From an uncultured Spirochaetota bacterium (GTDB lineage Bacteria; Spirochaetota; UBA4802; UBA5550), in assembly GCA_963827275.1 (NCBI GenBank), contig CAWHAA010000008.1:416001-480000 (forward strand): a DNA stretch of 64,000 bases, given 5' to 3'. The notes beneath the pieces were generated by a model, which was not told the DNA's origin, did no database searches, and was given only the letters and a program-made list of their open reading frames with translations. Position numbers and translations under genes: made by a program. Below, piece after piece: positions 3,055-32,821 of the stretch; the stretch's first letter is position 1, and each line of letters begins with the position of its first letter.

Positions 3055-3138
3055 TCCGTCAGCGGCACGGGACGCCCGGCGAGCGCGAGAGGGGGTTCGG
3101 TCCCTCGTAATTAAAAGGTAAGGATGACAGACTGATAC

Positions 3139-5631
3139 ATGAAAGCCATTGAAATCGCAAGAAGAAATCATATCTCCATGGAAGATATGATGGAAGTGTG
3201 CCGGGAGCTTGAAATAGCATGCGAGACCGAGGACTCCGATCTCCAGGAAAAGAACATATTTCTCATTGAGAAGAAAATAGAGGCTATCAAGAAGCGCAAG
3301 GCCCAGCAGATCGAGGACAGCAAGAAGGGAAAGAAGATCAAGCTGAAGCGAAAGGTGCAGGTCCACAAGGAAGGGAAGGAAGGCGAAGCGGCCGAAGAGC
3401 CGAAGAAAGCCGAGGCCGACCACCCGACACCGGAACGGACCGGTGCGCCGGCCGCGCGTACCCCGCAGAGACGGGAAGGCGCAACGGAGCGGCCGCGCCG
3501 TCCGGGTGAAGGCCCGCACCGTCCGGGTGAGGGAGCGCGCCGTCCGGGCGAAGGCCCGCGCCGTCCTGGCGAAGGCCCGCGCCGTCCTGGTGAAGGCCCG
3601 CGCCGTCCTGGCGAAGGCCCGCGCCGTCCGGGCGAAGGCCCGCGCCGTCCTGGCGAAGGCCCGCGCCGTCCGGGCGAAGGCCCGCGCCGTCCGGGCGAAG
3701 GCCCGAGAAAAGAAGGGGAAAAGCCCACTGCCGCTATCGGCGATGGAAAAGATAAGAAAAGAAAGAAAACCAAAGAGAAAGAAAAGGACAAAAGAAAATA
3801 TAAGAAGGAACAGGAAGAAAAAGAGATAACCCTCCGGAAGAAGTCCGCGGAAGAGAGAAAGCGCGAAGCGGCCGCCCCGGACGAGATACACATCACGGAA
3901 AATATATCGGTCGGCGACCTGGCGAAGAAACTGAACATCAAGGCCGCGGACGTCATCGCCAAGCTGATGAACCTGGGCGTCATGGTGACGATCAACCAGG
4001 TCATCGACGCGGAGACCGCCGAGATCCTCTCTGCGGAATACGGCACCAACGTCAAGGTGGTTTCTCTGTATGATGAGACCGTCATCAAGCACGTCGAGGA
4101 GGACCTCCCGCAGGATTACGTGCACCGTCCGCCCGTCGTCACGGTCATGGGGCATGTCGACCACGGTAAGACGAAGCTGCTGGACGCGATACGCTCGACC
4201 AATATCATTGACAAGGAATTCGGCGGGATAACCCAGCATATCGGCGCCTACAGCGTGGTGATCCCCGGCAACAAGAAGATCACCTTCCTCGATACACCGG
4301 GCCACGAGGCCTTTACCACCATGCGGGCCCGCGGGGCAAAGGTGACCGATATTGTCGTCCTCGTGGTGGCGGCCAATGACGGCGTCATGCCGCAGACCAT
4401 CGAGGCCATCAACCACGCGAAGGACGCCGGCGTCCCCATTATCGTGGCGATAAACAAGGTTGACCTCCCCGAGGCGAACCCTGATAAGGTAAAGCACGAG
4501 CTCGCGAAGTACGATCTGGTGCAGGAATCATGGGGCGGTACAACGCTCTTCGCGGAGATAAGCGCGAAGTTCAATAAGAACATAGACACGCTGCTGGAGC
4601 TCATCCTCATCCAGGCGGAGATGCTGGAGCTGAAAGCGAACCCGAAGGTCGTCGCCAAGGGCACGGTCATCGAGTCGAAGCTCGACATGGGCCGCGGCGC
4701 CGTGTCCACGGTCCTGATACAGAACGGGACGCTCCATGTGGGCGATCCCTTCGTAATCGGCGTCTTCTCGGGGAAAGTGCGCGCCATGTTCGATGATCAC
4801 GGCAAGCCCCTGGAAGAGGCGGGGCCGTCCGTCCCGGTCGAGGTGCTCGGTATATCGGGCGTTCCGTCGGCCGGCGATCCCTTTGAAGGGGTCGATTCGG
4901 ACAAGACCGCGAAGCAGATATCCCAGAAGCGTCTCGAGTTCAAGAGGGCGGAATCGGCCAAGAAGGTGAAGAAGGTGACCCTGGAGTCCCTGAACGAGAT
5001 GATACGCGAGGGCGAGGTACAGGAGCTCCGCATCATCGTCAAGGCGGACGTCGACGGCTCGAGCCAGGCCCTGAAGGAATCACTGGAAAAATTATCGATC
5101 GGCGAGGTGCGGGTCAAGGTCATCCACACCGGCACCGGCGGCATCAACGAGTCGGACGTCATGCTGGCATCGGCCTCGAACGCCGTTATCATCGGGTACC
5201 ACGTGCGTCCCACCGGCAAGGTTTCGGAGATTGCGGAGCATGAAAACGTATCGATAAAATTCTTCAATGTCATATTCGAGGTCACCGACTCGATCAAGCT
5301 GGCAATGGAGGGAATGCTCAGACCGGAGATCAGGGAAGAGATTCTCGGGGCCGGCGAGGTGAAACAGGTGTTCAAGATATCCAAGATAGGGACCATCGCC
5401 GGGTCCATGCTCACCTCCGGAAAGATCGACCGGAGCTGCAAGGTGCGCCTGATCCGCGACAGCGTCGTCATTTTTGACGGCGCCCTCAAGTCGCTCAAGC
5501 GCTTCAAGGACGATGTGTCCGAGGTGACCGTGACCCAGGAGTTCGGTTTCGGCCTGGAGGGCTTCAACGACGTCAAGGAAGGCGACACCTTCGAGGCCTA
5601 CAAGCTGGTGGAAATTGCCAAAACGATATGA
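3139..5631 (+). CDS. infB: Translation initiation factor IF-2
   Basis: [22 protein letters not shown] GTPase motifs. Confidence 0.99.
3496..3705 (+). repeat. Ten in-frame 21-bp tandem repeats encoding RRPGEGP within infB
   Basis: CGCCGTCC(G/T)GG(C/T)GAAGGCCCG x10, second unit diverged (HRPGEGA). Confidence 0.97.
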
Positions 5632-22324: not shown

Positions 22325-23002
22325 ATGTTTGATCCTGACGCGAAGAAGACGGTATTCACCTATATAAAGGCGTTCGTATACCTCGCCAGGTCGTTTTTCC
22401 ATTACCACCTCTCGTTCAAGAAGAAGTTCGTCCGTATCGGCGGCCATCCGGACGTCTGGGGGATCTGGAACGTCGTGGTGTACGGCCCCAACATCAGCAT
22501 CGGCTCCGGAGTGATCATCGTCGCCGCGGACGGCCACCGCACGAACATCTCGTCGATCAAGATGGGCGGCATCGAGGGGCGCATCGACATCGGGAACAAT
22601 GTGCTCGTCATGAACGGGGTGCGGATCAGCTCCGCCAGCTCCATCACCATCGGCGACGGGTGCATGCTGGCCAATTTCTGCTACCTCACCGATTCCGACT
22701 GGCACGATATCCACGACCGGACCAGCGCGCCCGGGGCGTGCGCGCCCATCGTGCTCGAACGGGGCGCGTGGATCGGCGATTCCGCGATCGTGTGCAAGGG
22801 CGTGCGCGTGGGCGAGAATTCGATCGTGGGGGCCGGCGCCGTGGTCACCAGGGACGTGCCCCCCAATGCGGTCGTTGCCGGCAATCCGGCGCGCGTGGTC
22901 AAGAAGCTTGACCCGGAAAAGATCATCCTCATGGGCGAGTGGGAGAAGAAGCGGCTGCTGCGGCAGGAACCGATAACTATCATGCGCAGGGAGCGCCGAT
23001 GA
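22325..23002 (+). CDS. Hexapeptide-repeat acyltransferase
   Basis: IGDGC, DSDWHD, IVGAGAVVTRDVPPNAVVAGNPAR. Confidence 0.9.
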   Translation: MFDPDAKKTVFTYIKAFVYLARSFFHYHLSFKKKFVRIGGHPDVWGIWNVVVYGPNISIGSGVIIVAADGHRTNISSIKMGGIEGRIDIGNNVLVMNGVRISSASSITIGDGCMLANFCYLTDSDWHDIHDRTSAPGACAPIVLERGAWIGDSAIVCKGVRVGENSIVGAGAVVTRDVPPNAVVAGNPARVVKKLDPEKIILMGEWEKKRLLRQEPITIMRRERR

Positions 23003-24237
23003 ACTCGGAACGTCCCCTCACCATATGCCTCCTCTGCTACCGGGGGAACCCCTACTCGGGCGGCCAGGGGATCTACCTCAAGTACATAGCCGACGAGATG
23101 GTGCGCCAGGGCCACGAGGTCCACGCGATCGTGGGGCCGCCCTATCCCTTTCCCATGAAGGGCGTCACGCTGCACAAAATCCACAACAACCAGTATTTCG
23201 TCCGGAAAAAGTTCGACATCATCGAGCGTGGCGATCCGTTCGGCATATTCAGGCCGCTCAATTTCTACGAGTACCTTGCCAGCCGCACCGGCGCCTTTTC
23301 GGAGATCAGCACCTTCGGGTGGCGCGCCTATATGCTGCTCCGCGAGCTCCACGCGCGGCACGGCTTCGACGTGATACACGACAACCAGTCGGTCGGCTAC
23401 GGCCTCCTGATGATGAAGGCCTTCGGCGTGCCGGTGGTGGCCACCATCCACCATCCCCTCTCGATCGACCTCGTCAACGTGCTCGAGCGGACGCAGAAGT
23501 TCAAAAACAAGCTCAAGACCGCGATGTTCTACCCCACGATGATGCAGTCCATCGTGTCGAAGCGGCTTGACCACATCATCACCGTGTCCGAGGACTCGAA
23601 GAGAATGATCAACCGCGACTTCGGCGTGCCGATGGAGAAGCAGACGGTGGTGTACAACGGCATTGACCGGAGCGTGTTCAGGCCGCTGACCGGCGTGAAG
23701 AAAAAAACAGGAAAGATCATCTTCGTCGGCAACGTGGAGGACGGCAAGAAGGGCTTTGTCTATTTATTGAAGGCGATGCCGCTCATAGACCGCCGGGTCA
23801 GGCTCACCGTGGTGGACGGCGGCGCGCCGCACCACAAGGTGACCGACCGGCTGATGGCCTCGCTCGGCCTGGAGGGCCGTGTCGAGTTCACCGGCAAAAT
23901 GACGACCGGGGATCTGGTGCGGCACTACGGCGAGTCGGAGATCGCGATCGTGCCGTCCGTGTACGAAGGGTTCGGGCTCCCGGCCGCGGAGGCGATGTCG
24001 TGCGGCGTGCCGGTCGTGTCGAGCGACGGCGGCGCGCTCCCGGAGGTGGTGGGCGGCGCCGGCATCGTGGCACCCGCACGCGACCACGAGGCGATCGCGA
24101 AGGCGGTGAACACCCTTTTCGCCGACCGCGCCCTCATGAAGGAGATGGGGCAGGCCGGCATCGAGCGGGTGAAGGAGCACTTCAACTGGGAAAAGGCGGT
24201 GCGGGAGATAGTCGCGGTGTACCGGCGGTTTATCTGA
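22999..24237 (+). CDS. Glycosyltransferase family 4
   Basis: SGGQGIY, PSVYEGFGLPAAEAMSCG; ATGA overlap with upstream gene. Confidence 0.93.
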   Translation: MNSERPLTICLLCYRGNPYSGGQGIYLKYIADEMVRQGHEVHAIVGPPYPFPMKGVTLHKIHNNQYFVRKKFDIIERGDPFGIFRPLNFYEYLASRTGAFSEISTFGWRAYMLLRELHARHGFDVIHDNQSVGYGLLMMKAFGVPVVATIHHPLSIDLVNVLERTQKFKNKLKTAMFYPTMMQSIVSKRLDHIITVSEDSKRMINRDFGVPMEKQTVVYNGIDRSVFRPLTGVKKKTGKIIFVGNVEDGKKGFVYLLKAMPLIDRRVRLTVVDGGAPHHKVTDRLMASLGLEGRVEFTGKMTTGDLVRHYGESEIAIVPSVYEGFGLPAAEAMSCGVPVVSSDGGALPEVVGGAGIVAPARDHEAIAKAVNTLFADRALMKEMGQAGIERVKEHFNWEKAVREIVAVYRRFI

Positions 24238-24664
24238 GAGATCCCGGCATGGATTCGACATAGGCCTTTATCTCGTCCCGCACGCGGCGATAGTGGACCA
24301 TTGCCTCCTCCTCCGATGCCGCGTGTTTCGCCAGCTCCGGCGGATCGTCGAACCCGCGGTGAATGAATTTTGCGTTGCCGCGGAAAAAGGGGCAGGTTTC
24401 CGACTCGCCGCCGCACAGCGTGACGACGTAATCCAGTCTCATACCGCCGAATTCATCATCATGCTTCGATCGCTGTCCCGATATATCGATCCCGATTTCG
24501 GCCATGGCCCTGACGGCCAGCGGGTCGAGGCCCGCCGGCCTGCTGCCGGCAGAATACGCCTCGATGATATCGCCCTTCAGGGACCGGGCCAGCCCTTCGG
24601 CCATCTGGCTGCGGCAGGAATTCCCGGTGCAGAGGAAGAGTATTTTCAGCTTTTTATCAGTCAT
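24230..24664 (-). CDS. arsC: Arsenate reductase ArsC (LMW-PTP, thioredoxin-coupled)
   Basis: FLCTGNSCRSQMAEG, VTLC...ETCP, FDDP; next to acr3. Confidence 0.95.
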   Translation of the reverse strand: MTDKKLKILFLCTGNSCRSQMAEGLARSLKGDIIEAYSAGSRPAGLDPLAVRAMAEIGIDISGQRSKHDDEFGGMRLDYVVTLCGGESETCPFFRGNAKFIHRGFDDPPELAKHAASEEEAMVHYRRVRDEIKAYVESMPGSLR

Positions 24665-24672
24665 GTGAAGAA

Positions 24673-25719
24673 TCATCCACCGAAATAGTTCTTTTTAAAA
24701 TACAGCGCCACGTTCACCAGGCCGATCATGACGGGCACCTCGACCAGCGGGCCGATGACCGCGGCGAAGGCGGCGCCGGAATTGATGCCGAAGACCGCCA
24801 CTGCCACGGCGATGGCAAGCTCAAAGTTGTTGCTCGCGGCGGTGAATGAAAGGGTCGTCGCAACCGGGTACCCGGCGCCTATCTTTTTACTCATGTAGAA
24901 GCTTACCAGGAACATCACGACAAAATAGATGAGCAGCGGAATGGCGATCCGCACGACATCGAGCGGGATCTTTACGATGTACTCGCCCTTCAGGCTGAAC
25001 ATGACCAGGATTGTAAATAAAAGCGCGATGAGCGTGATGGGACTGATTTTCGGGATGAATTTTGTCTGGTACCATTCCTTGTTTTTCAGCTTGATGAGCG
25101 CGAACCGGGTTATGATGCCGGCAATGAAGGGTATGCCCAGGTAGATAAAAACGCTCTTTGCGATCTGCCCTATGGTGATGTCCACAACGCTGCCCGTGAG
25201 CCCGAAGAGCGGCGGCAGCACGGTGATGAAAAACCACGCATACACGCTGAAGAACAGCACCTGGAAGATGCTGTTGAAGGCTACGAGACCGGCCGCGTAT
25301 TCAGTGTCGCCCTTGGCAAGGTCATTCCACACGATCACCATGGCGATGCAGCGCGCCAGACCTATCATGATGAGGCCCACCATGTATTCGGGATAACCGC
25401 TCAGGAAGGTGATGGCGAGAAAAAACATGAGCACCGGCCCGACAAGCCAGTTCTGAATAAGGGAAAGCCCGAGCACCTTCCAGTTTTTAAACACGTCGCC
25501 GAGTTCTTCATATTTAACTTTCGCCAGCGGCGGGTACATCATGAGGATAAGGCCGATCGCGATCGGTATGTTCGTGGTTCCGGACTGGAACTGGTTCCAG
25601 AAGGCGGCTGTTTCCGGAATGAAGTATCCCAGGGCCACGCCGATTGCCATGGCGGCGAAGATCCAGATAGTGAGAAAGCGGTCGATGAATGATAATTTAC
25701 TTGTTATTCCTTCGCTCAT
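24673..25719 (-). CDS. acr3: Acr3 family arsenite efflux transporter
   Basis: [37 protein letters not shown]. Confidence 0.97.
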
Positions 25720-25733
25720 TGCTTTTCTCCATG

Positions 25734-26432
25734 CTATGTAAGTTGTATCCCGAAAATATAGACCATGCAAAAATATATTCCCACGAGTATAAAGAGAGCG
25801 CCGGTGCCGCGGCGCGCCCACAATTCCATTCGCGACACCATGTTGAAAGCATTCGACAGGTAGTTGGCCCCGAAGGCCAGGATGAGCCCGAAGACCAGTA
25901 TCGGAAGCGCGGTGCCCGCGCCGTAGAGCAGGGGAAGGAGGAGAGGGGAGGCGTTGCGCACCGCGAGCGGGAGGAGGCTGCCGAAAAAGAGCGCGGCCGA
26001 CACCGGGCAGAACGCCAGGGCAAAGACGACCCCCATGATAAAGGAAGCGGCAAAAATATTTTTTTCAGCCAGCCGTCCGAGTCTTGATGAGTCGGTCCCC
26101 CTGCCGGCAGGGAGCCGCAGCAGGCCGAGGAGGAACATCCCGGCAATGATGAGGACCGGACCGAGGATCCTGTTCATGTAGCGCTGTAAAAAATTTGACA
26201 CGGAGGGGATAGAGAGCAGGCTTGTTACAAGAAGGGCGGCAAGGGCCGCATAGGCCGCCATCCTTCCCAGGAGATAGAGCAGCGAGCTGATGACGGCGGT
26301 CCGTTTTTTTGCGGCGTTTTTGCCGATGTACGACACCGCCGCGATGTTCGTCGCCAGCGGGCAGGGGCTGACGGACGTCAGAACGCCGAGCCACAGGGCG
26401 GCGATAATTCCGGTGGTCAATTCTCCGCTCAT
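25734..26432 (-). CDS. arsG: ArsG-family / CcdA(DsbD)-like membrane protein
   Basis: About 6 [13 protein letters not shown] and FCPVS motifs. Confidence 0.8.
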
Positions 26433-26935
26433 ATCTGTTTTAAAAATCCGGCAATTTCATTTTTTATATAAGCGGTGAAAGACGGTTCGTCCCGGACCAG
26501 CTCCCATATCCTGTCCAGGTTTTTCCACCGGACCCGCGTGCCTTTTTCCGTATCGACGATAACAACCGACTTGGTAAAAAGCCTGAAGTCATCCACGAAA
26601 TGCCTGTTTTCGAGAAGCTCAATATTGACGGGGCTCCATGTTATCCTTTTTGAGGCAAGTTCCGCGGAAAAATTATCCCGAACTGCTGATGCGGTCAGGG
26701 CCTCTATTTTACGGCAGGTCGGGCACCGTGCGGTCGTGTGAAAATAATAGACCGTCAGGGCGCGCTCCTGTGCCGGGACGCCGGTGTCCGGCGTGGATTG
26801 GCCCGATGCCGGCGACACGCCCGCTGCGGCCGTTTCGTTCTTTGCGGAATTCCGCACCTCGGTTGCGACCAGGTAGATGGCGCTTGCCGCAACGAAAATC
26901 GATAATACTATGGTGGTGATTCTTCTTGCTTTCAT
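26429..26935 (-). CDS. arsF: ArsF-family exported thioredoxin-like protein
   Basis: N-terminal membrane anchor, YYFHTTARCPTCRKIE. Confidence 0.78.
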   Translation of the reverse strand: MKARRITTIVLSIFVAASAIYLVATEVRNSAKNETAAAGVSPASGQSTPDTGVPAQERALTVYYFHTTARCPTCRKIEALTASAVRDNFSAELASKRITWSPVNIELLENRHFVDDFRLFTKSVVIVDTEKGTRVRWKNLDRIWELVRDEPSFTAYIKNEIAGFLKQI

Positions 26936-26965
26936 CAGAATATCCTTATTAATATGTTCTGCGCA

Positions 26966-27373
26966 TCAACAGGTCCCGGCGCACGGACCGCCCGCCTGCC
27001 CCGCGCCGGGAGACGGCTCTTCCATATGCACGATACGGTCACATAGTGAATTGACGATCTCATCTGTCGGCGTCGTCTTTCCCTTTTCAATGCCGAAATC
27101 GGTCAGGACATACGATGCCGGCGATACCCCTATGCGCTCCAGTGTCTTTTTCGCGCACATGGTCCCGCACCCGTCTATAGTGATGTTGAGTTCCGCCCCG
27201 CGCGCGGATTCAACGAATCCTGACAGGTCAGCACCGATACCCGCGAGGCAGGTCATGCGCGCGAAGCCCGCGTCGCGGAGCTTGCGCGACACCCGGTCCG
27301 CGATCTGGCCCACGTCGGCAGAGCCCGAGCATGAGTATAGCAGTTTTACGCCGCCGGAGCAACAATCAGCCAT
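26966..27373 (-). CDS. DGC-domain putative zinc-binding protein
   Basis: YSCSG, MTCLAG, IDGCGTMCAKK. Confidence 0.88.
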   Translation of the reverse strand: MADCCSGGVKLLYSCSGSADVGQIADRVSRKLRDAGFARMTCLAGIGADLSGFVESARGAELNITIDGCGTMCAKKTLERIGVSPASYVLTDFGIEKGKTTPTDEIVNSLCDRIVHMEEPSPGAGQAGGPCAGTC

Positions 27374-27384
27374 GCTGCGACCTC

Positions 27385-27615
27385 CTATGATATAAGTTTT
27401 TTTATCTCTTCAAGGGAGGGTATCTTTCCCGCCACCTTGACCACGCCATCCTTGACCAGCGCCGGTGTGATCATGACGCCATAGTTGGTAATAGCGGTAA
27501 TGTCTTTGACATGATTGATCTGTGCGTCCACGCCCATCTCATCCACGGCCTGGCGCGTCAGCTCTTCAAGCTTCTGGCATTTGGCGCAGCCGCTGCCCAG
27601 TATCTCAAGTAACAT
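27385..27615 (-). CDS. Small redox-active disulfide protein (thioredoxin family)
   Basis: ILGSGCAKC, YGVMITPALV. Confidence 0.92.
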   Translation of the reverse strand: MLLEILGSGCAKCQKLEELTRQAVDEMGVDAQINHVKDITAITNYGVMITPALVKDGVVKVAGKIPSLEEIKKLIS

Positions 27616-27637
27616 GGGGTATCTCCTTTGTGTATAT

Positions 27638-28951
27638 TTAAAATAAAGAGCCGAAAATCATCCCTGACAGTGTCGCCATGATAACAACCAGTACCACGTA
27701 TACAGCGGTCTTTTGCCACCCGATAACGCTTTTAATGACCAGCATGCTCGGGAGCGAAAGTGCTGGACCGGCCAGCAAAAGCGCAAGCGCAGGGCCCTTG
27801 CCCATGCCGCTCCCGATAAGGCCCTGCACGATGGGCACCTCGGTGAGAGTGGCGAAGTACATGAATGCGCCGGATATTGCCGCGAAAAAATTAGCCCACA
27901 GGGAGTTGCCACCCACAGCCCAGGCGACCCATTCGTTTGGAATTACACCCTCTTTGCCAACGCGTCCAAGCAGAAAGCCCGCGATAAGCACACCGAAGAG
28001 AAGGAGGGGCAATATCTGCTTGGCGAAATCCCACGTCGAGACGAACCATCCTCCGGTTTCTCCTTTATCGGTGCTGGTGATGACCGAAAGGCCGATAGCG
28101 CCAGCGGAGAAAGCGAGGATGGGTTGTGACGGGATCGCGATCGAAAGAGCGACAACCGGCACGGCGGCCAGAAGCACCTTCCACCACTTCAACTCGAACC
28201 ACACGACCAGCACGACGGCGAAGAGTGCCGCTGATGCGCCGGTGATGATCCATTTGAGATTATATATTTCATACCAGAATCCGCTGGTTTCAACCGGCTT
28301 TCCCCAGTTGGCGAATACCAGGATTGCGATCATTGAAGCGAAGTAGATGATATTTTTCCAGAGCGCCCGCTTCACCTCCGGCTCCGGCATGTTCATGGCG
28401 GCCCTGGCTTTTTCAACTTCTTCCTTTCGATAAATAAAGTGCATGGCAAGGCCGATAACAACGCTGAAAACTACCGCCCCGACAGCACGCGCGATTCCTA
28501 TTTCAATTCCCAGGATCCTTGCCGTAAGTACTATGGCTAAAACGTTAATGGCTGGACCTGAATAGAGAAAGGCCGTGGCCGGCCCGAGTCCCGCTCCCAT
28601 CCGGTAGATACCGGAGAAGAGGGGGAGGACCGTACAGGAACAGACCGCGAGAATAGTTCCGGAAACGGACGACACGCCGTACGCAATGGCTTTGTTCGCC
28701 GTTGGGCCAAGGTATTTCATGACCGACTCCTGGCTTACAAAGACGGCAATAGCTCCGGCGATGAAAAAGGCCGGCACCAGGCAGAGGAGGACGTGCTCCT
28801 GCGCGTACCACTTGACAAGGTAGAGCGCCTCGAATACGGCGTTATCGAAGCGGGGGACCCCCACCGGCAGGTAAAACAGAAGCAAAAATGTTCCCGCTAT
28901 CCACAGCAATGGTTTCCATTCAGTCTTCCAGATCATTGTCACTGTCTCCAC
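27638..28951 (-). CDS. arsP: ArsP/DUF318 family permease
   Basis: AVCSCTVLPLF, FLYSGPAIN, MYFATLTEVPI, GPALSLP. Confidence 0.82.
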   Translation of the reverse strand: METVTMIWKTEWKPLLWIAGTFLLLFYLPVGVPRFDNAVFEALYLVKWYAQEHVLLCLVPAFFIAGAIAVFVSQESVMKYLGPTANKAIAYGVSSVSGTILAVCSCTVLPLFSGIYRMGAGLGPATAFLYSGPAINVLAIVLTARILGIEIGIARAVGAVVFSVVIGLAMHFIYRKEEVEKARAAMNMPEPEVKRALWKNIIYFASMIAILVFANWGKPVETSGFWYEIYNLKWIITGASAALFAVVLVVWFELKWWKVLLAAVPVVALSIAIPSQPILAFSAGAIGLSVITSTDKGETGGWFVSTWDFAKQILPLLLFGVLIAGFLLGRVGKEGVIPNEWVAWAVGGNSLWANFFAAISGAFMYFATLTEVPIVQGLIGSGMGKGPALALLLAGPALSLPSMLVIKSVIGWQKTAVYVVLVVIMATLSGMIFGSLF

Positions 28952-28972
28952 TGTGTCATTATTGATGAAGTG

Positions 28973-29326
28973 CTAACGGCCGGCTGTCGATATTTTTATC
29001 CCGCAGCACTGCGCTATGTTCATCTGCTTTTCCACGTTCGTTTTCAGGACTGTCTCGATGCAGCCGATGAAGTCGAGCACGCAGGGACAGCAGAGCGTAT
29101 AGTAGATGCTGGTGCCGCGCTTTTCGTCGAGGACCAGGCCGACGTTTTTCAGCACGCTCAGGTGCTTGGACACGGTGGAGACGTCCGAGCCGATCATGTC
29201 GGTGAGCTCGTTCACGCACCGTTCCGCCTTGTGCAGCTCCTCGATGATGAAGAGACGCGTGGGGTGTCCCATTGCCTTGAGTATGTTCGCCCTGGCCTCG
29301 TATTGCGGGTGCAGTTTCTGTTCCAT
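28973..29326 (-). CDS. arsR: ArsR/SmtB family metalloregulator
   Basis: KAMGHPTRL, RCVNEL, STVSKHLSVLKNVGLV, CCPC and C-terminal CC. Confidence 0.93.
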   Translation of the reverse strand: MEQKLHPQYEARANILKAMGHPTRLFIIEELHKAERCVNELTDMIGSDVSTVSKHLSVLKNVGLVLDEKRGTSIYYTLCCPCVLDFIGCIETVLKTNVEKQMNIAQCCGIKISTAGR

Positions 29327-29339
29327 TGTTCGCGCTCCT

Positions 29340-29642
29340 TCAGCAGCAACTGGTTGATTGCCCGCCGGCCGGGCCGCCGCAGTCGCAGGACGGCTCGCTA
29401 CCGGTCAGCATGCCCTTGATGATCGCCGCGGCGCAGCCCACGCCCGAGCCGACCGTGAGCGCGCCGAACTCGCAGTTCAGGGCGCAGGCGCCGCATTCCA
29501 TGCAGAGGTCTTTGTCGGTGATATGCGCTTTCCCCTCCCGCATCTCGAATACCGCGTGCGGGCACACCTCGGTGCAGCGGCGGCACCCGGTGCATTTTTC
29601 CCGGTCGTACGCGAGCGTGGCCACGTTTTTCAGATATTTCAT
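29340..29642 (-). CDS. hgcB: Mercury methylation ferredoxin HgcB
   Basis: CTGCRRCTEVCPH, CMECGACALNC, GVGCA, terminal CC; ATGA-coupled to hgcA. Confidence 0.97.
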   Translation of the reverse strand: MKYLKNVATLAYDREKCTGCRRCTEVCPHAVFEMREGKAHITDKDLCMECGACALNCEFGALTVGSGVGCAAAIIKGMLTGSEPSCDCGGPAGGQSTSCC

Positions 29643-30832
29643 ATGAGCCCCCATGATTCCAGTTTATAGAGTATGACGAGGACTATCGTTGTCGCCAGCC
29701 CGGCGATGTATATCGGCAGCCAGAGCTTCAGCTCTTTTTTGACCCCGCTTATGGTGGTGAAGGTGGTCGCGCCGGTGAACTGGAGCGCCAGGTACGAGGA
29801 GAGGAGCGGGAAGAGAACCAGCGCTGCCGTTTTTAACAACAGGGAGTTCCCGCCGAGCGGTGTCGCGAGCACCAGGGGTGCGACTGCGGCGGCCCCGGCA
29901 ACGAGCCCCTTCACCGCAAATGAACGGAACGGGATGAAGGGGAGGAGCGCCGGCGTGACAAAGGCACCCGCCAGGACGCCTGTCATGCAGAGGAGAATAA
30001 CGGGCCAGCCCTCTGACCAGGCGCTGTTCCATAAAATGCCTTCAGGCTGTATCCCGAATATCACGAGGATGATCAGCGCCGCGAGGGGAAATTTCCTGAA
30101 GGCCTGGTTCAGCTCGATCGGGACAAGGACCAGGCGGTCACCCAGGGTGAACCGGATCGTCCTCATCGCAGGAGTGGCGCTGCATCCCGCCCTGATATAT
30201 TCCGGGATGTCGTTCGCGTCCACGGGCCCGAAGCGCACGCTGAAACCGGTCTTCTTTTTAACCTCCGCGGCATTGACCCCGGTGGCGCCGAGCTGGGGCA
30301 CGATGAGGCGCCGGTGCCCGACCAGCTGTGCCAGGTTCAGCCCGAGAACGCGCTTCACGAGCTCCCCGGTGCCGAAGGTGCCTTTGCCGGCAGCGCACCA
30401 GACGTTGATCCCCTTCGTATCGAGGACCAGTATCCAGCCGTTCATGCCCGCGAGCGAGCGGCGGAGCATATCAAATGAAAGCTTGTAGTTTGCCGACACG
30501 AAAATATCGGACCCCGCGTCCGGTGCGCCCACCGCGTACAGCCCGGGCCGTACCGCATAGTGCTCCCTGAATGCGCTGATGCGGGAGCGGAACCGGCCCC
30601 ATCGGTCGGATCTGGTCCACCCTGCTGCGACGACCGGCACCAGCCCGGAAGATGTGTTCAGGACACCGGTAACCCAGGGCTCCTTGCCCTGGGTAATATC
30701 CGATAATGACTGGAGCGCCCGGAGGTTCACCCGGGGCCCGCGTGCCAGTACGCCCTGATTTTTTTGCCCGCCGCAGCAGGACTGTTGCGGCGTATTCTCT
30801 GCCGGTTTTGCATACATTTCTAGAGGTTTCAT
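29639..30832 (-). CDS. hgcA: Mercury methylation corrinoid protein HgcA
   Basis: ANYKLSFD, cap helix GINVWCAAGKG, C-terminal TM domain, FTGATTFT..SGVKKE. Confidence 0.98.
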   Translation of the reverse strand: MKPLEMYAKPAENTPQQSCCGGQKNQGVLARGPRVNLRALQSLSDITQGKEPWVTGVLNTSSGLVPVVAAGWTRSDRWGRFRSRISAFREHYAVRPGLYAVGAPDAGSDIFVSANYKLSFDMLRRSLAGMNGWILVLDTKGINVWCAAGKGTFGTGELVKRVLGLNLAQLVGHRRLIVPQLGATGVNAAEVKKKTGFSVRFGPVDANDIPEYIRAGCSATPAMRTIRFTLGDRLVLVPIELNQAFRKFPLAALIILVIFGIQPEGILWNSAWSEGWPVILLCMTGVLAGAFVTPALLPFIPFRSFAVKGLVAGAAAVAPLVLATPLGGNSLLLKTAALVLFPLLSSYLALQFTGATTFTTISGVKKELKLWLPIYIAGLATTIVLVILYKLESWGLI

Positions 30833-30858
30833 ACTACTACACTTTAATCATTGTATAT

Positions 30859-30892
30859 TTGGCAATATAGCCAATTAACCAATGAATGTCAA
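30859..30892 (-). promoter_or_regulatory. hgcA promoter with overlapping palindromic operator
   Basis: Minus strand TTGACA (30892-30887)-N17-TATATT (30869-30864); TTGGC-N6-GCCAA (30859-30874) centred on the -10. Confidence 0.85.
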
Positions 30893-31055
30893 GAATCATT
30901 TTTCCCAGCAAGAAAATTTTAAAGCAAGGATTACCGGTTATTGTAACATCGTCAGGTGCGGATTGATGGACATGGAATACGCCTGCGCTGAAGAGGGTAT
31001 GCCGCATGGCGTGCGCACTATGCCGGCACGGCGCATCATCCCGGCATCCGGCCTG

Positions 31056-32786
31056 TCATGCGGGGGACTCTCCTTCAGATTTCTGATACCGGTCTGCTTC
31101 CTGTCCGCCCCTGTTGTCCCGCCGGTACCGCTCGGGCGTGGTCCCCATGTAGCGGGGAAACAGGCGGTTGAAGGTCCGGATGCTGTCGAACCCGACCGAT
31201 GACGCGATGGTCATGACGCTCTCTTCATCGCGCACCAGTTTGTCCGCGGCTTCACGCATGCGGAGCTCGTTTATGTAATCACCCAGTTTTTTGCCGGTGT
31301 ATTTTTTAAAAAGACGGCTCAGGCTGTCGGGATGCACCTCAGCCTGGCCGGCAAGAAATGAACGGGAGAGATGAGCCGTATAGTTGTCGTTGATGTAGTC
31401 AGCCACCTGTAAAATTCTCGTGCGCGGATTGGCCGCTCCCTGGTCGGCGCCGCCCCGTCTCTTCCGCGCGGCCGCGACCATCTTCAGTTTTTCACCGAGC
31501 AGGGCGTTCTCTATGACGAAGCTCTCAAGGCTGTTGTTGAGGTCTTCCACCTCGTCCATCATCCGTATGAACCGGATGGTAAGCACCAGCGCGCTGCCGA
31601 TGAAAAACACGGCGGCCGCGTAGGGGAATATCATGTACTGGAAAGCGATACCCCAGCGGGCCATGTCATTGCCGGTCAGCTTGAGGAAGAATATGCCCCC
31701 GTCATGGAGGGCCCCCATGATGGCGATGATGCCGAAAAAGCTGAAGATTTTCGCGTAGGGGTGTTTTTTTATCAGGGCGGATACGTGGCAGGAGATGTTG
31801 TACATGCCCACGAGACAGGCAAGGGCGGTCAGCACGGAACCGGAGTTCCGTACGATTCCGCCCCGTGTCTCTTCGGTGATGAAAAAAAAGATGAACAGGG
31901 CCACCACTGCGAGATAGGTCCAGAGCGCCACCTCGATTTTTTTTCTGGCCAGCCCGTAAACGCGGTGCAGGAAAATGGGGTGCACGGCCGTGATCGCGAC
32001 CCAGGCGGTGATCAGGACCTGCTGCCGCCTGAGCTGGGAACCGTAGAGGTCCCAGTAGGAGCAGAGTTCGAGCACTATGAAAAACCCGCACAGGACCTGG
32101 AGACAATAATAAAGATATTCCTGCTCTGCGGGCCTTTTGATCGAAAAAAACAGGTACATGATGAAAAGGATCACCCCCAGCGCCATGATCATGAAGACCA
32201 GCTCCACCACGAGAAACCGCGCTGCCATTCCGCTCCCGCTCCAGTCGTTGATGCCGGTCACCGCAAGTGTCCCCATGACGTCCCCGAACAGGAAATAGGA
32301 GACCCGCACTGCGACGACATTCTCTTCTCCGGGCCGGATGAATCTTCCGCTTATCCGGTAATAGCGCGGATGGTTCCACATGGAATGGGCATGGGGCAGG
32401 AACCCCCCCATGCCCCCGATCCTGACGCCGTTAAAGTAGGTCTCGTCGGCGTTGGCGATCCTTCCCAGTACCAGCCCCAGGTCTTCACCGGGCCGGACGC
32501 CGTTCAGGCGGACTTTTTTTCTGAGCCAGAGAACGCCGCCGATTTTTTCCGACCTGCCGTACACGTAGGACATGAGGTTCGACGGAAGGGTGATGGCGTC
32601 CCACCCGGAATCATTGAAACCGGCGGCGGCATACCGCGGGTCGTCGTCCGGTGATATTTTCCAGACGCCTTCCAGGGACACGCGCGTGCCGCCCCCGTCC
32701 TCCCGGCCGGGCATGCCGCGGAAGGCCATGGAAATGACGAAAATGCAGCAGCCGATGACCAGATACAATAGGGTCCTGAGTATCAT
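31056..32786 (-). CDS. Membrane-bound AraC regulator (extracytoplasmic sugar-binding-like domain + multi-TM + AraC HTH)
   Basis: LEGVWK..D..DSGW, LWLRK, ADETYFNGVRIG; about 7 TM; YINELR, VGFDSIRTFNRLF. Confidence 0.88.
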   Translation of the reverse strand: MILRTLLYLVIGCCIFVISMAFRGMPGREDGGGTRVSLEGVWKISPDDDPRYAAAGFNDSGWDAITLPSNLMSYVYGRSEKIGGVLWLRKKVRLNGVRPGEDLGLVLGRIANADETYFNGVRIGGMGGFLPHAHSMWNHPRYYRISGRFIRPGEENVVAVRVSYFLFGDVMGTLAVTGINDWSGSGMAARFLVVELVFMIMALGVILFIMYLFFSIKRPAEQEYLYYCLQVLCGFFIVLELCSYWDLYGSQLRRQQVLITAWVAITAVHPIFLHRVYGLARKKIEVALWTYLAVVALFIFFFITEETRGGIVRNSGSVLTALACLVGMYNISCHVSALIKKHPYAKIFSFFGIIAIMGALHDGGIFFLKLTGNDMARWGIAFQYMIFPYAAAVFFIGSALVLTIRFIRMMDEVEDLNNSLESFVIENALLGEKLKMVAAARKRRGGADQGAANPRTRILQVADYINDNYTAHLSRSFLAGQAEVHPDSLSRLFKKYTGKKLGDYINELRMREAADKLVRDEESVMTIASSVGFDSIRTFNRLFPRYMGTTPERYRRDNRGGQEADRYQKSEGESPA

Positions 32787-32821
32787 AGTTCCTCCGCCAT
32801 TGAAAGGGCCGCTCACCGGCT

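Follow-up and report, generated by a model that had tools for sequence, protein, structure and literature searches.

Two open questions in mercury biogeochemistry are how expression of the mercury-methylation genes hgcA and hgcB is controlled and what the native role of HgcAB is. The pair has been found flanked by acr3, arsC, arsM or arsR (McDaniel et al. 2020, PMC7438021; Gionfriddo et al. 2020, 10.1101/2020.02.03.933291), and in one instance arsR and arsB follow hgcB. In Pseudodesulfovibrio mercurii ND132, arsR2-hgcA-hgcB are co-transcribed and induced by arsenic, which also induced an arsR5-arsP-arsE-DGC operon, and Spirochaetes were listed among the lineages with ArsR-type regulators of hgcAB (Gionfriddo et al., 10.1101/2022.10.17.512643; below, Gionfriddo 2022). 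The linkage of hgcAB with ars genes and their induction by arsenic are therefore already published (McDaniel 2020; Gionfriddo 2022). We have analyzed a stretch of 64,000 nucleotides from an uncultured Spirochaetota bacterium (assembly GCA_963827275.1, contig CAWHAA010000008.1, positions 416,001 to 480,000), called here the window, in which hgcA and hgcB are the first two genes of an arsenic-resistance operon. What is new is a predicted operator palindrome and its position, before hgcA in place of arsR. The hgcA-hgcB-arsR layout as such may already be contained in the supplementary genome table of Gionfriddo 2022.

The window resembles the arsR2-hgcAB locus of ND132 in combining an ArsR-family repressor with hgcAB, in a genome that has arsP and lacks arsM. 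However, ND132 has a dedicated four-Cys ArsR2 upstream of hgcA and no adjacent ars genes, with no operator mapped in the available sections of Gionfriddo 2022, whereas in the window the repressor is found downstream, belongs to an arsR-arsP clade and has one predicted operator for hgcAB and the whole detoxification set. The neighborhoods described in 2020 are similar in having hgcAB among ars genes, but the accessible parts of both papers deal with proximity only, and give neither an operator nor a genus-wide placement of hgcAB between operator and arsR. The downstream genes are the same set as in the arsR-arsP-arsE-DGC operon (ND132 operon C; ArsP of C. jejuni, PMC6205960; NCBIfam families ArsE, ArsF and ArsG). 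In the class to which this microbe belongs that set is usually stand-alone, with the same box before arsR, and the window adds hgcAB as its first two genes. A literature search that did not extend to subscription journals gave no operator mapped at hgcA, and no usable operator motif was found for the ArsR clade of the window. The reading that we favor, and consider reasonably probable as a whole, is that hgcAB are located between an ars promoter and arsR, that the ArsR of the operon represses them until trivalent arsenic appears, and that HgcAB is probably not a substitute for ArsM.

Evidence for this reading comes from a palindrome of 16 bases that overlaps the hgcA promoter (Table 1). We scanned the genome holding the window (G000, 92.2% complete) with a matrix trained on 16 sites, all of them from hgcA-hgcB-arsR loci, and the box was the sole strong site, scoring 35.6 against 17.8 for the next one. 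The comparison was extended to 55 hgcA loci of the class, that is, those of the 52 hgcA-positive genomes among 95 that were at least 85% complete, plus three less complete relatives, with one duplicate hgcA copy left out. Among them, 18 have the hgcA-hgcB-arsR layout, 23 a different ArsR upstream of hgcA, nine an upstream Cys-rich MarR and five none of these. The box was found before hgcA in 18/18 of the first group, with scores of 18.2-39.6 (G008 and G062 were not part of the training), and the score did not exceed 10.3 before hgcA in the other 37. As a held-out test we took the 30 best matches to the window ArsR. When arsR heads an arsR-arsP set with no hgcAB in front, the box appeared 33-43 nt upstream in 11 of 13 cases (10 of these 11 scoring at least 22) and was absent in two genomes. 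In the 17 loci where hgcAB come first, no site at up to 160 nt from arsR scored higher than 0.5. Because the box usually precedes arsR when this gene stands alone, precedes hgcA when hgcAB are inserted and is then missing between hgcB and arsR, it belongs to the ArsR clade of the window and its position has shifted from arsR to hgcA; binding by ArsR itself is predicted. Since the predicted operator of the ars operon covers part of the promoter of hgcA and is missing ahead of arsR, it is sound to infer that arsenic induces hgcAB. The locus provides a defined regulator and a predicted operator for hgcAB across an anaerobic genus.

All ten open reading frames of the unit are intact and, between 30832 and 24230 of the minus strand, follow the order hgcA-hgcB-arsR-arsP-arsE-DGC-arsF-arsG-acr3-arsC, as the first-pass annotation had proposed; positions and family models agree on this. 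The spacings, in operon order, are -4, 13, 36, 22, 11, 30, -4, 14 and 8 nt. Whether all gaps are overlaps or 30 bp at most, as claimed there, depends on the start codon taken for arsP, the arsR-arsP spacing being 36 nt when counted to the ATG and 21 nt to the upstream GTG. Nine of the ten proteins (HgcA, HgcB, ArsR, ArsP, ArsE, DGC, ArsF, ArsG and Acr3) exceed the cut-offs of their families. ArsC passes PF01451 but scored 127 bits on TIGR02691, under the cut-off of 174.3, with Cys12, Cys84 and Cys91 kept. One same-strand unit contains arsR, acr3 and arsC, as is expected of an ArsR-regulated ars operon. The annotation had also counted one clear promoter, and the site in Table 1 (30892-30864) was indeed the top-scoring sigma-70 match in 23900-31300; the remaining four reached 9/12 each, and five sites in total is the chance level (3.8 +/- 1.9 in shuffles). 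Judged from this arrangement, hgcAB are very probably co-transcribed with the ars genes under this ArsR.

Table 1. Predicted features of the hgcAB-ars operon (window positions).
Feature	Position	Strand	Basis
Sigma-70-type promoter (predicted), -35 TTGACA, 17 nt, -10 TATATT	30864..30892	-	11/12 consensus matches
Palindrome, predicted ArsR operator TTGGC-N6-GCCAA, over the -10 box	30859..30874 (24-mer 30855-30878)		Matrix scan
hgcA, corrinoid mercury methyltransferase, 397 aa	29639..30832	-	NF040863 394 bits (cut-off 275)
hgcB, 2[4Fe-4S] ferredoxin, 100 aa	29340..29642	-	NF040864 128 bits (cut-off 99)
arsR, ArsR/SmtB repressor, 117 aa	28973..29326	-	NF033788, PF01022
arsP-family permease	27638..28936; alternative GTG start 28951	-	PF03773 (ArsP_1) 222 bits
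ArsE-type thioredoxin-like protein, 76 aa	27385..27615	-	TIGR00412, PF13192
DGC-domain protein, 135 aa	26966..27373	-	PF08859
ArsF-family protein, 168 aa	26429..26935	-	NF040494 112.7 bits (cut-off 60)
ArsG-family (CcdA/DsbD-like) membrane protein, 232 aa	25734..26432	-	NF040495 269 bits (cut-off 200), PF13386
acr3 arsenite efflux pump, 348 aa	24673..25719	-	TIGR00832 457 bits (cut-off 283)
arsC, thioredoxin-type arsenate reductase	24230..24664; upstream ATG 24676	-	PF01451

The hgcA-hgcB pair is, by its motifs, membrane domain, adjacency and model scores, a predicted mercury-methylation pair. HgcA carries NVWCAAGK at residues 143-150, a form of N(V/I)WCA(A/G)GK, the cap-helix motif of the HgcA corrinoid domain, and its C-terminal membrane domain has five hydrophobic segments (residues 243-388). 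HgcB has two CxxCxxCxxxC motifs and a terminal CC. Besides, the N-terminal tail of HgcA contains a Cys-Cys pair, Cys19-Cys20 (30773-30778). Among the relatives, hgcA is split into two reading frames in L134 (G016, where arsP is split as well) and in L150 (G053); several unrelated genes of G016 are also split, which suggests assembly errors.

The hgcA-hgcB-arsR layout was present in 15 of 16 relatives from the genus, although the genes after arsR differ widely between them. In a quick maximum likelihood tree of 53 HgcA proteins, rooted at the midpoint and without the split genes of G016 and G053, the 17/17 rows with this layout formed one clade (SH-aLRT 93) nested among the loci with an upstream ArsR and including two genomes of another family. 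The simplest reading of this topology is that hgcAB were likely inserted once between operator and arsR, with one later transfer.

The ArsR of the window belongs to the clade heading arsR-arsP operons in this class, and its Cys82, Cys89 and Cys107/108 are largely conserved. It lacks the CxC...CxC pattern and is not of the ND132 ArsR2 type. Conversely, the cysteines of 22/22 aligned upstream ArsRs of relatives are arranged as CxC-37-CxC, the spacing reported for the four-Cys ArsR2 of ND132 (Gionfriddo 2022). Typing the window ArsR through solved structures gave distant matches only, and the available passages of a preprint on the ArsR superfamily (10.64898/2026.05.15.721447) provided no cluster assignment. 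In the 23 class genomes with a four-Cys ArsR before hgcA we observed a different conserved palindrome, TATCGTA-N4-TACGATA-like, a short way upstream of that arsR and directly after a TTGAC(A/T)-like -35 box, recognized by eye in 22/22 of the loci inspected (L124, L135, L136, L140-L142, L150, L153, L204, L206-L208, L210-L214, L218-L222), which is a candidate operator for the ArsR2-type regulator of hgcAB. No site of this type was found in G000 at one mismatch or less.

With this repressor, the mechanism could be as follows. ArsR would bind the palindrome over the -10 box and block the promoter, until As(III) or an organoarsenical(III) binds its C-terminal cysteines and frees it. The single transcript would then yield HgcAB, more ArsR and the detoxification set, in which ArsC would reduce arsenate, Acr3 would export arsenite, and ArsP with ArsE/F/G would likely handle organoarsenicals from other microbes. 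The export of methylarsenite by ArsP is suggested by its family and gene context; the protein scores under the cut-offs of the SaoE and SO_0444 models, and PF03773 also takes in Cu/Zn exporters. No usable primary papers were found for ArsE, ArsF or ArsG. Arsenic is quite likely an inducer of the operon, and HgcAB is likely ordinary mercury-methylating cargo under metalloid-stress control. The first-pass annotation had expected methylmercury production to be inducible by arsenic. The predicted operator at hgcA supports such control of hgcAB expression, more firmly than the annotation could. In ND132 a higher hgcAB transcript level did not reliably raise methylmercury (Gionfriddo 2022). Arsenic control can be tested with a two-part reporter, and arsenic-linked expression of hgcAB is predicted beyond the sulfate reducers.

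Two alternatives concern the regulation. That hgcAB are simple neighbors of the ars genes, with a transcript of their own, is very improbable: the unit does contain three 9/12 promoter-like matches, of which two (28959, 24669) are on the operon strand, but such matches are at chance level, none is near arsR and the hgcB-arsR gap is 13 nt. This gap measures 10-23 nt in 17/17 relatives' loci, most of the spacers being purine-rich and ribosome-site-like by eye, and in 17/17 such loci the ArsR box is missing before arsR and present before hgcA. A separate promoter between hgcB and arsR, one of the findings that the annotation had named as refuting its idea, was searched for there, and neither the promoter scan nor the box scan gave one. 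It is also improbable, if less so, that the ArsR of an operon and operator such as these senses S-adenosylhomocysteine (SAH), Hg/Cd/Cu or thiol oxidation instead of arsenic. The lack of a characterised close homolog among those found, the Cu/Zn exporters within PF03773 and the response of ND132 ArsR2 and ArsR5 to SAH build-up would fit such a sensor. However, acr3 and arsC share the unit, and in ND132 an operon of like make-up was induced by arsenic while Hg was no inducer of hgcA (Gionfriddo 2022).

The remaining alternatives concern what HgcAB does. The annotation had proposed that HgcAB fills the slot of ArsM, methylating As(III) to methylarsenite that ArsP exports, and we regard this as quite unlikely. 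In its favor, no S-adenosylmethionine (SAM) methyltransferase family matched any of the ten operon proteins, the best of 17 matches to NF008823 in G000 reached 53 bits against a cut-off of 263, and tblastn with the ArsM of a relative and a short ArsM-like protein showed no hidden arsM in this genome (best E 3e-10). Neither was any true arsM found beside hgcA in 80 wider loci, a set with many short contigs that overlaps the class set; 25 of them contain ars genes no more than 7 kb away, arranged differently. Also in favor are the sharing of one Cys-rich MarR clade (see below) and the use of SAM by HgcAB, as by ArsM (PMC11588087). In the class, arsM was detected in 19 of the 95 genomes (absent in 76/95), hgcA in 52 and a close ArsP homolog in 68, and the raw counts suggest avoidance, with arsM in 4/52 genomes with hgcA and 15/43 without (p=0.0015). 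But this signal comes from one genus of nine genomes; without it the numbers are 4/52 and 6/34 (p=0.18), and counting genera with and without hgcA they are 4/24 and 4/21 (p=1.0), so we rejected mutual exclusion of hgcA and arsM. A second phylum of 251 genomes showed a mild, non-significant depletion (18/78 with hgcA, 59/173 without, p=0.10), with the best 9 candidates per genome scored for arsM and kinship ignored; this leans slightly toward the idea of the annotation but is far from exclusion. ArsP does not need a producer inside the cell. It was present in 19/28 class genomes having neither hgcA nor arsM. This fits the role described for ArsP from C. jejuni, defence against methylarsenite made by others (PMC6205960). 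Moreover, G008 and G016 carry the hgcA-hgcB-arsR operon together with an arsM over the cut-off, and the hgcAB-arsR loci of G010 and G012 lack arsP, which the window ArsP as query did not find elsewhere in these genomes either. ND132 lacks arsM and has two arsP besides hgcAB, yet mono- and dimethylarsenicals were not detected in it; that speciation, carried out with the wild type only, left one unidentified peak and did not account for 20-30% of the arsenic (Gionfriddo 2022). With ArsP common where no methylator exists, arsM rare anyway, relatives that have both and the ND132 data, HgcAB is probably not a substitute for ArsM.

The two systems share the use of SAM, a thiol-loving metal(loid) as methyl acceptor and, in some relatives, the MarR regulator clade, but ArsM is a class I SAM methyltransferase and HgcAB a membrane corrinoid protein with a ferredoxin. 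In ArsM chemistry, As(III) attacks a methyl cation equivalent. HgcAB has been proposed to donate a methyl radical or carbanion to Hg(II), an electrophile (PMC11588087), and our search gave no published arsenic-methylating activity of HgcAB. We give little credence to the idea that the native job of HgcAB is to methylate arsenite or an organoarsenical in a B12-dependent way, with mercury methylation as a side reaction; if it were true, the operon and the exchange of arsM and hgcAB behind one MarR clade would be its genomic footprints. It is likewise unlikely, but deserves slightly more weight, that HgcAB is a working part of metalloid defence whose target is not arsenite but, for example, antimony, a thioarsenical, an incoming organoarsenical or some further thiol-loving ion. 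For it speak the repeated placement of hgcAB behind putative metalloid sensors, of which there are no fewer than three distinct kinds (18 captured operators, 23 ArsR2-type and nine MarR of 55), the organoarsenical-defence families next to hgcAB in the window, the addition of another, MtrA-like corrinoid protein to the operon of relatives and the As(V) phenotype of the ND132 hgcAB knockout. Yet that knockout was not more sensitive to As(III) (Gionfriddo 2022), the proposed substrates are putative and the downstream cargo varies freely among relatives.

Several points weigh against the control of hgcAB as plain cargo by an arsenic-responsive ArsR. Our searches gave no closely related ArsR that has been solved or characterised (the nearest match in the Protein Data Bank is NolR, E 9e-11), so its inducer is deduced from gene context. 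No terminator-like site was found in the stretch that separates the operon promoter from the same-strand AraC-family gene upstream, and read-through could therefore add an unregulated transcript. The direction of the insertion depends on a quick tree rooted at the midpoint. Against HgcAB as mere cargo, hgcA is accompanied by a regulator of the ArsR type or a Cys-rich MarR in 50 of the 55 class loci, arsM and hgcA can both follow a MarR of the same clade, and loss of hgcAB made ND132 more sensitive to As(V). ArsR2 and ArsR5 of that strain responded to SAH build-up as well as to arsenic (Gionfriddo 2022).

The MarR clade in question is Cys-rich (support 100/98) and immediately precedes arsM in G008, G016 and G019 but hgcA in G022, G084 and three Thermodesulfobacteriota/deltaproteobacterial loci (L137:7251-7757, L154:8594-9091, L156, L157, L164, L075, L079, L088), the MarR of G022 being 69% identical to that of G008. 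Other Cys-rich MarRs precede hgcA in seven further genomes. This is a sign of shared regulation, not of shared chemistry. The survey shows that hgcAB have more than once changed places among putative metalloid sensors of three kinds. It adds weight to the published connection with arsenic, without revealing how HgcAB acts on arsenic. Members of the MarR_ars subfamily have, by definition, a Cys pair at the N-terminus and one C-terminal Cys (10.1101/2021.08.12.456183), and we did not apply this label to the Cys-rich MarRs, which mostly have one or two N-terminal Cys and C-terminal pairs. A literature search for MarR paired with arsM gave none. We also observed a short ArsM-like methyltransferase (~215-235 aa, ~190 bits on NF008823, under the cut-off) in L158-L163 and L169-L171, recurring in the order marR-methyltransferase-radical SAM/SPASM-thioredoxin reductase.

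Regarding the surroundings of the operon, the AraC-family membrane regulator is at 31056-32816, and a GT4 glycosyltransferase (22939-24237) converges on the operon from downstream. In most relatives of the genus a flavorubredoxin-like gene is the usual upstream neighbor, unlike the flanks found here, so this genome may carry the operon at a new site. Elsewhere in G000, at C5:542083-542481, there is another ArsC/LMW-phosphatase-like gene (39% identical). The MtrA-like corrinoid protein (PF04208) is in the same operon in four relatives and a radical SAM/SPASM protein in five (L119:4666-5346 and 3101-4204; also L121, L128, L130, L133, L134); by tblastn neither was found in G000. Finally, in L146 (G043) a small open reading frame takes the place of the ArsR or MarR gene before hgcA and by eye resembles AbrB/MazE-type antitoxin regulators. 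Genes for AbrB/MazE-type regulators before hgcA have been described for other methylators (PMC10349881).

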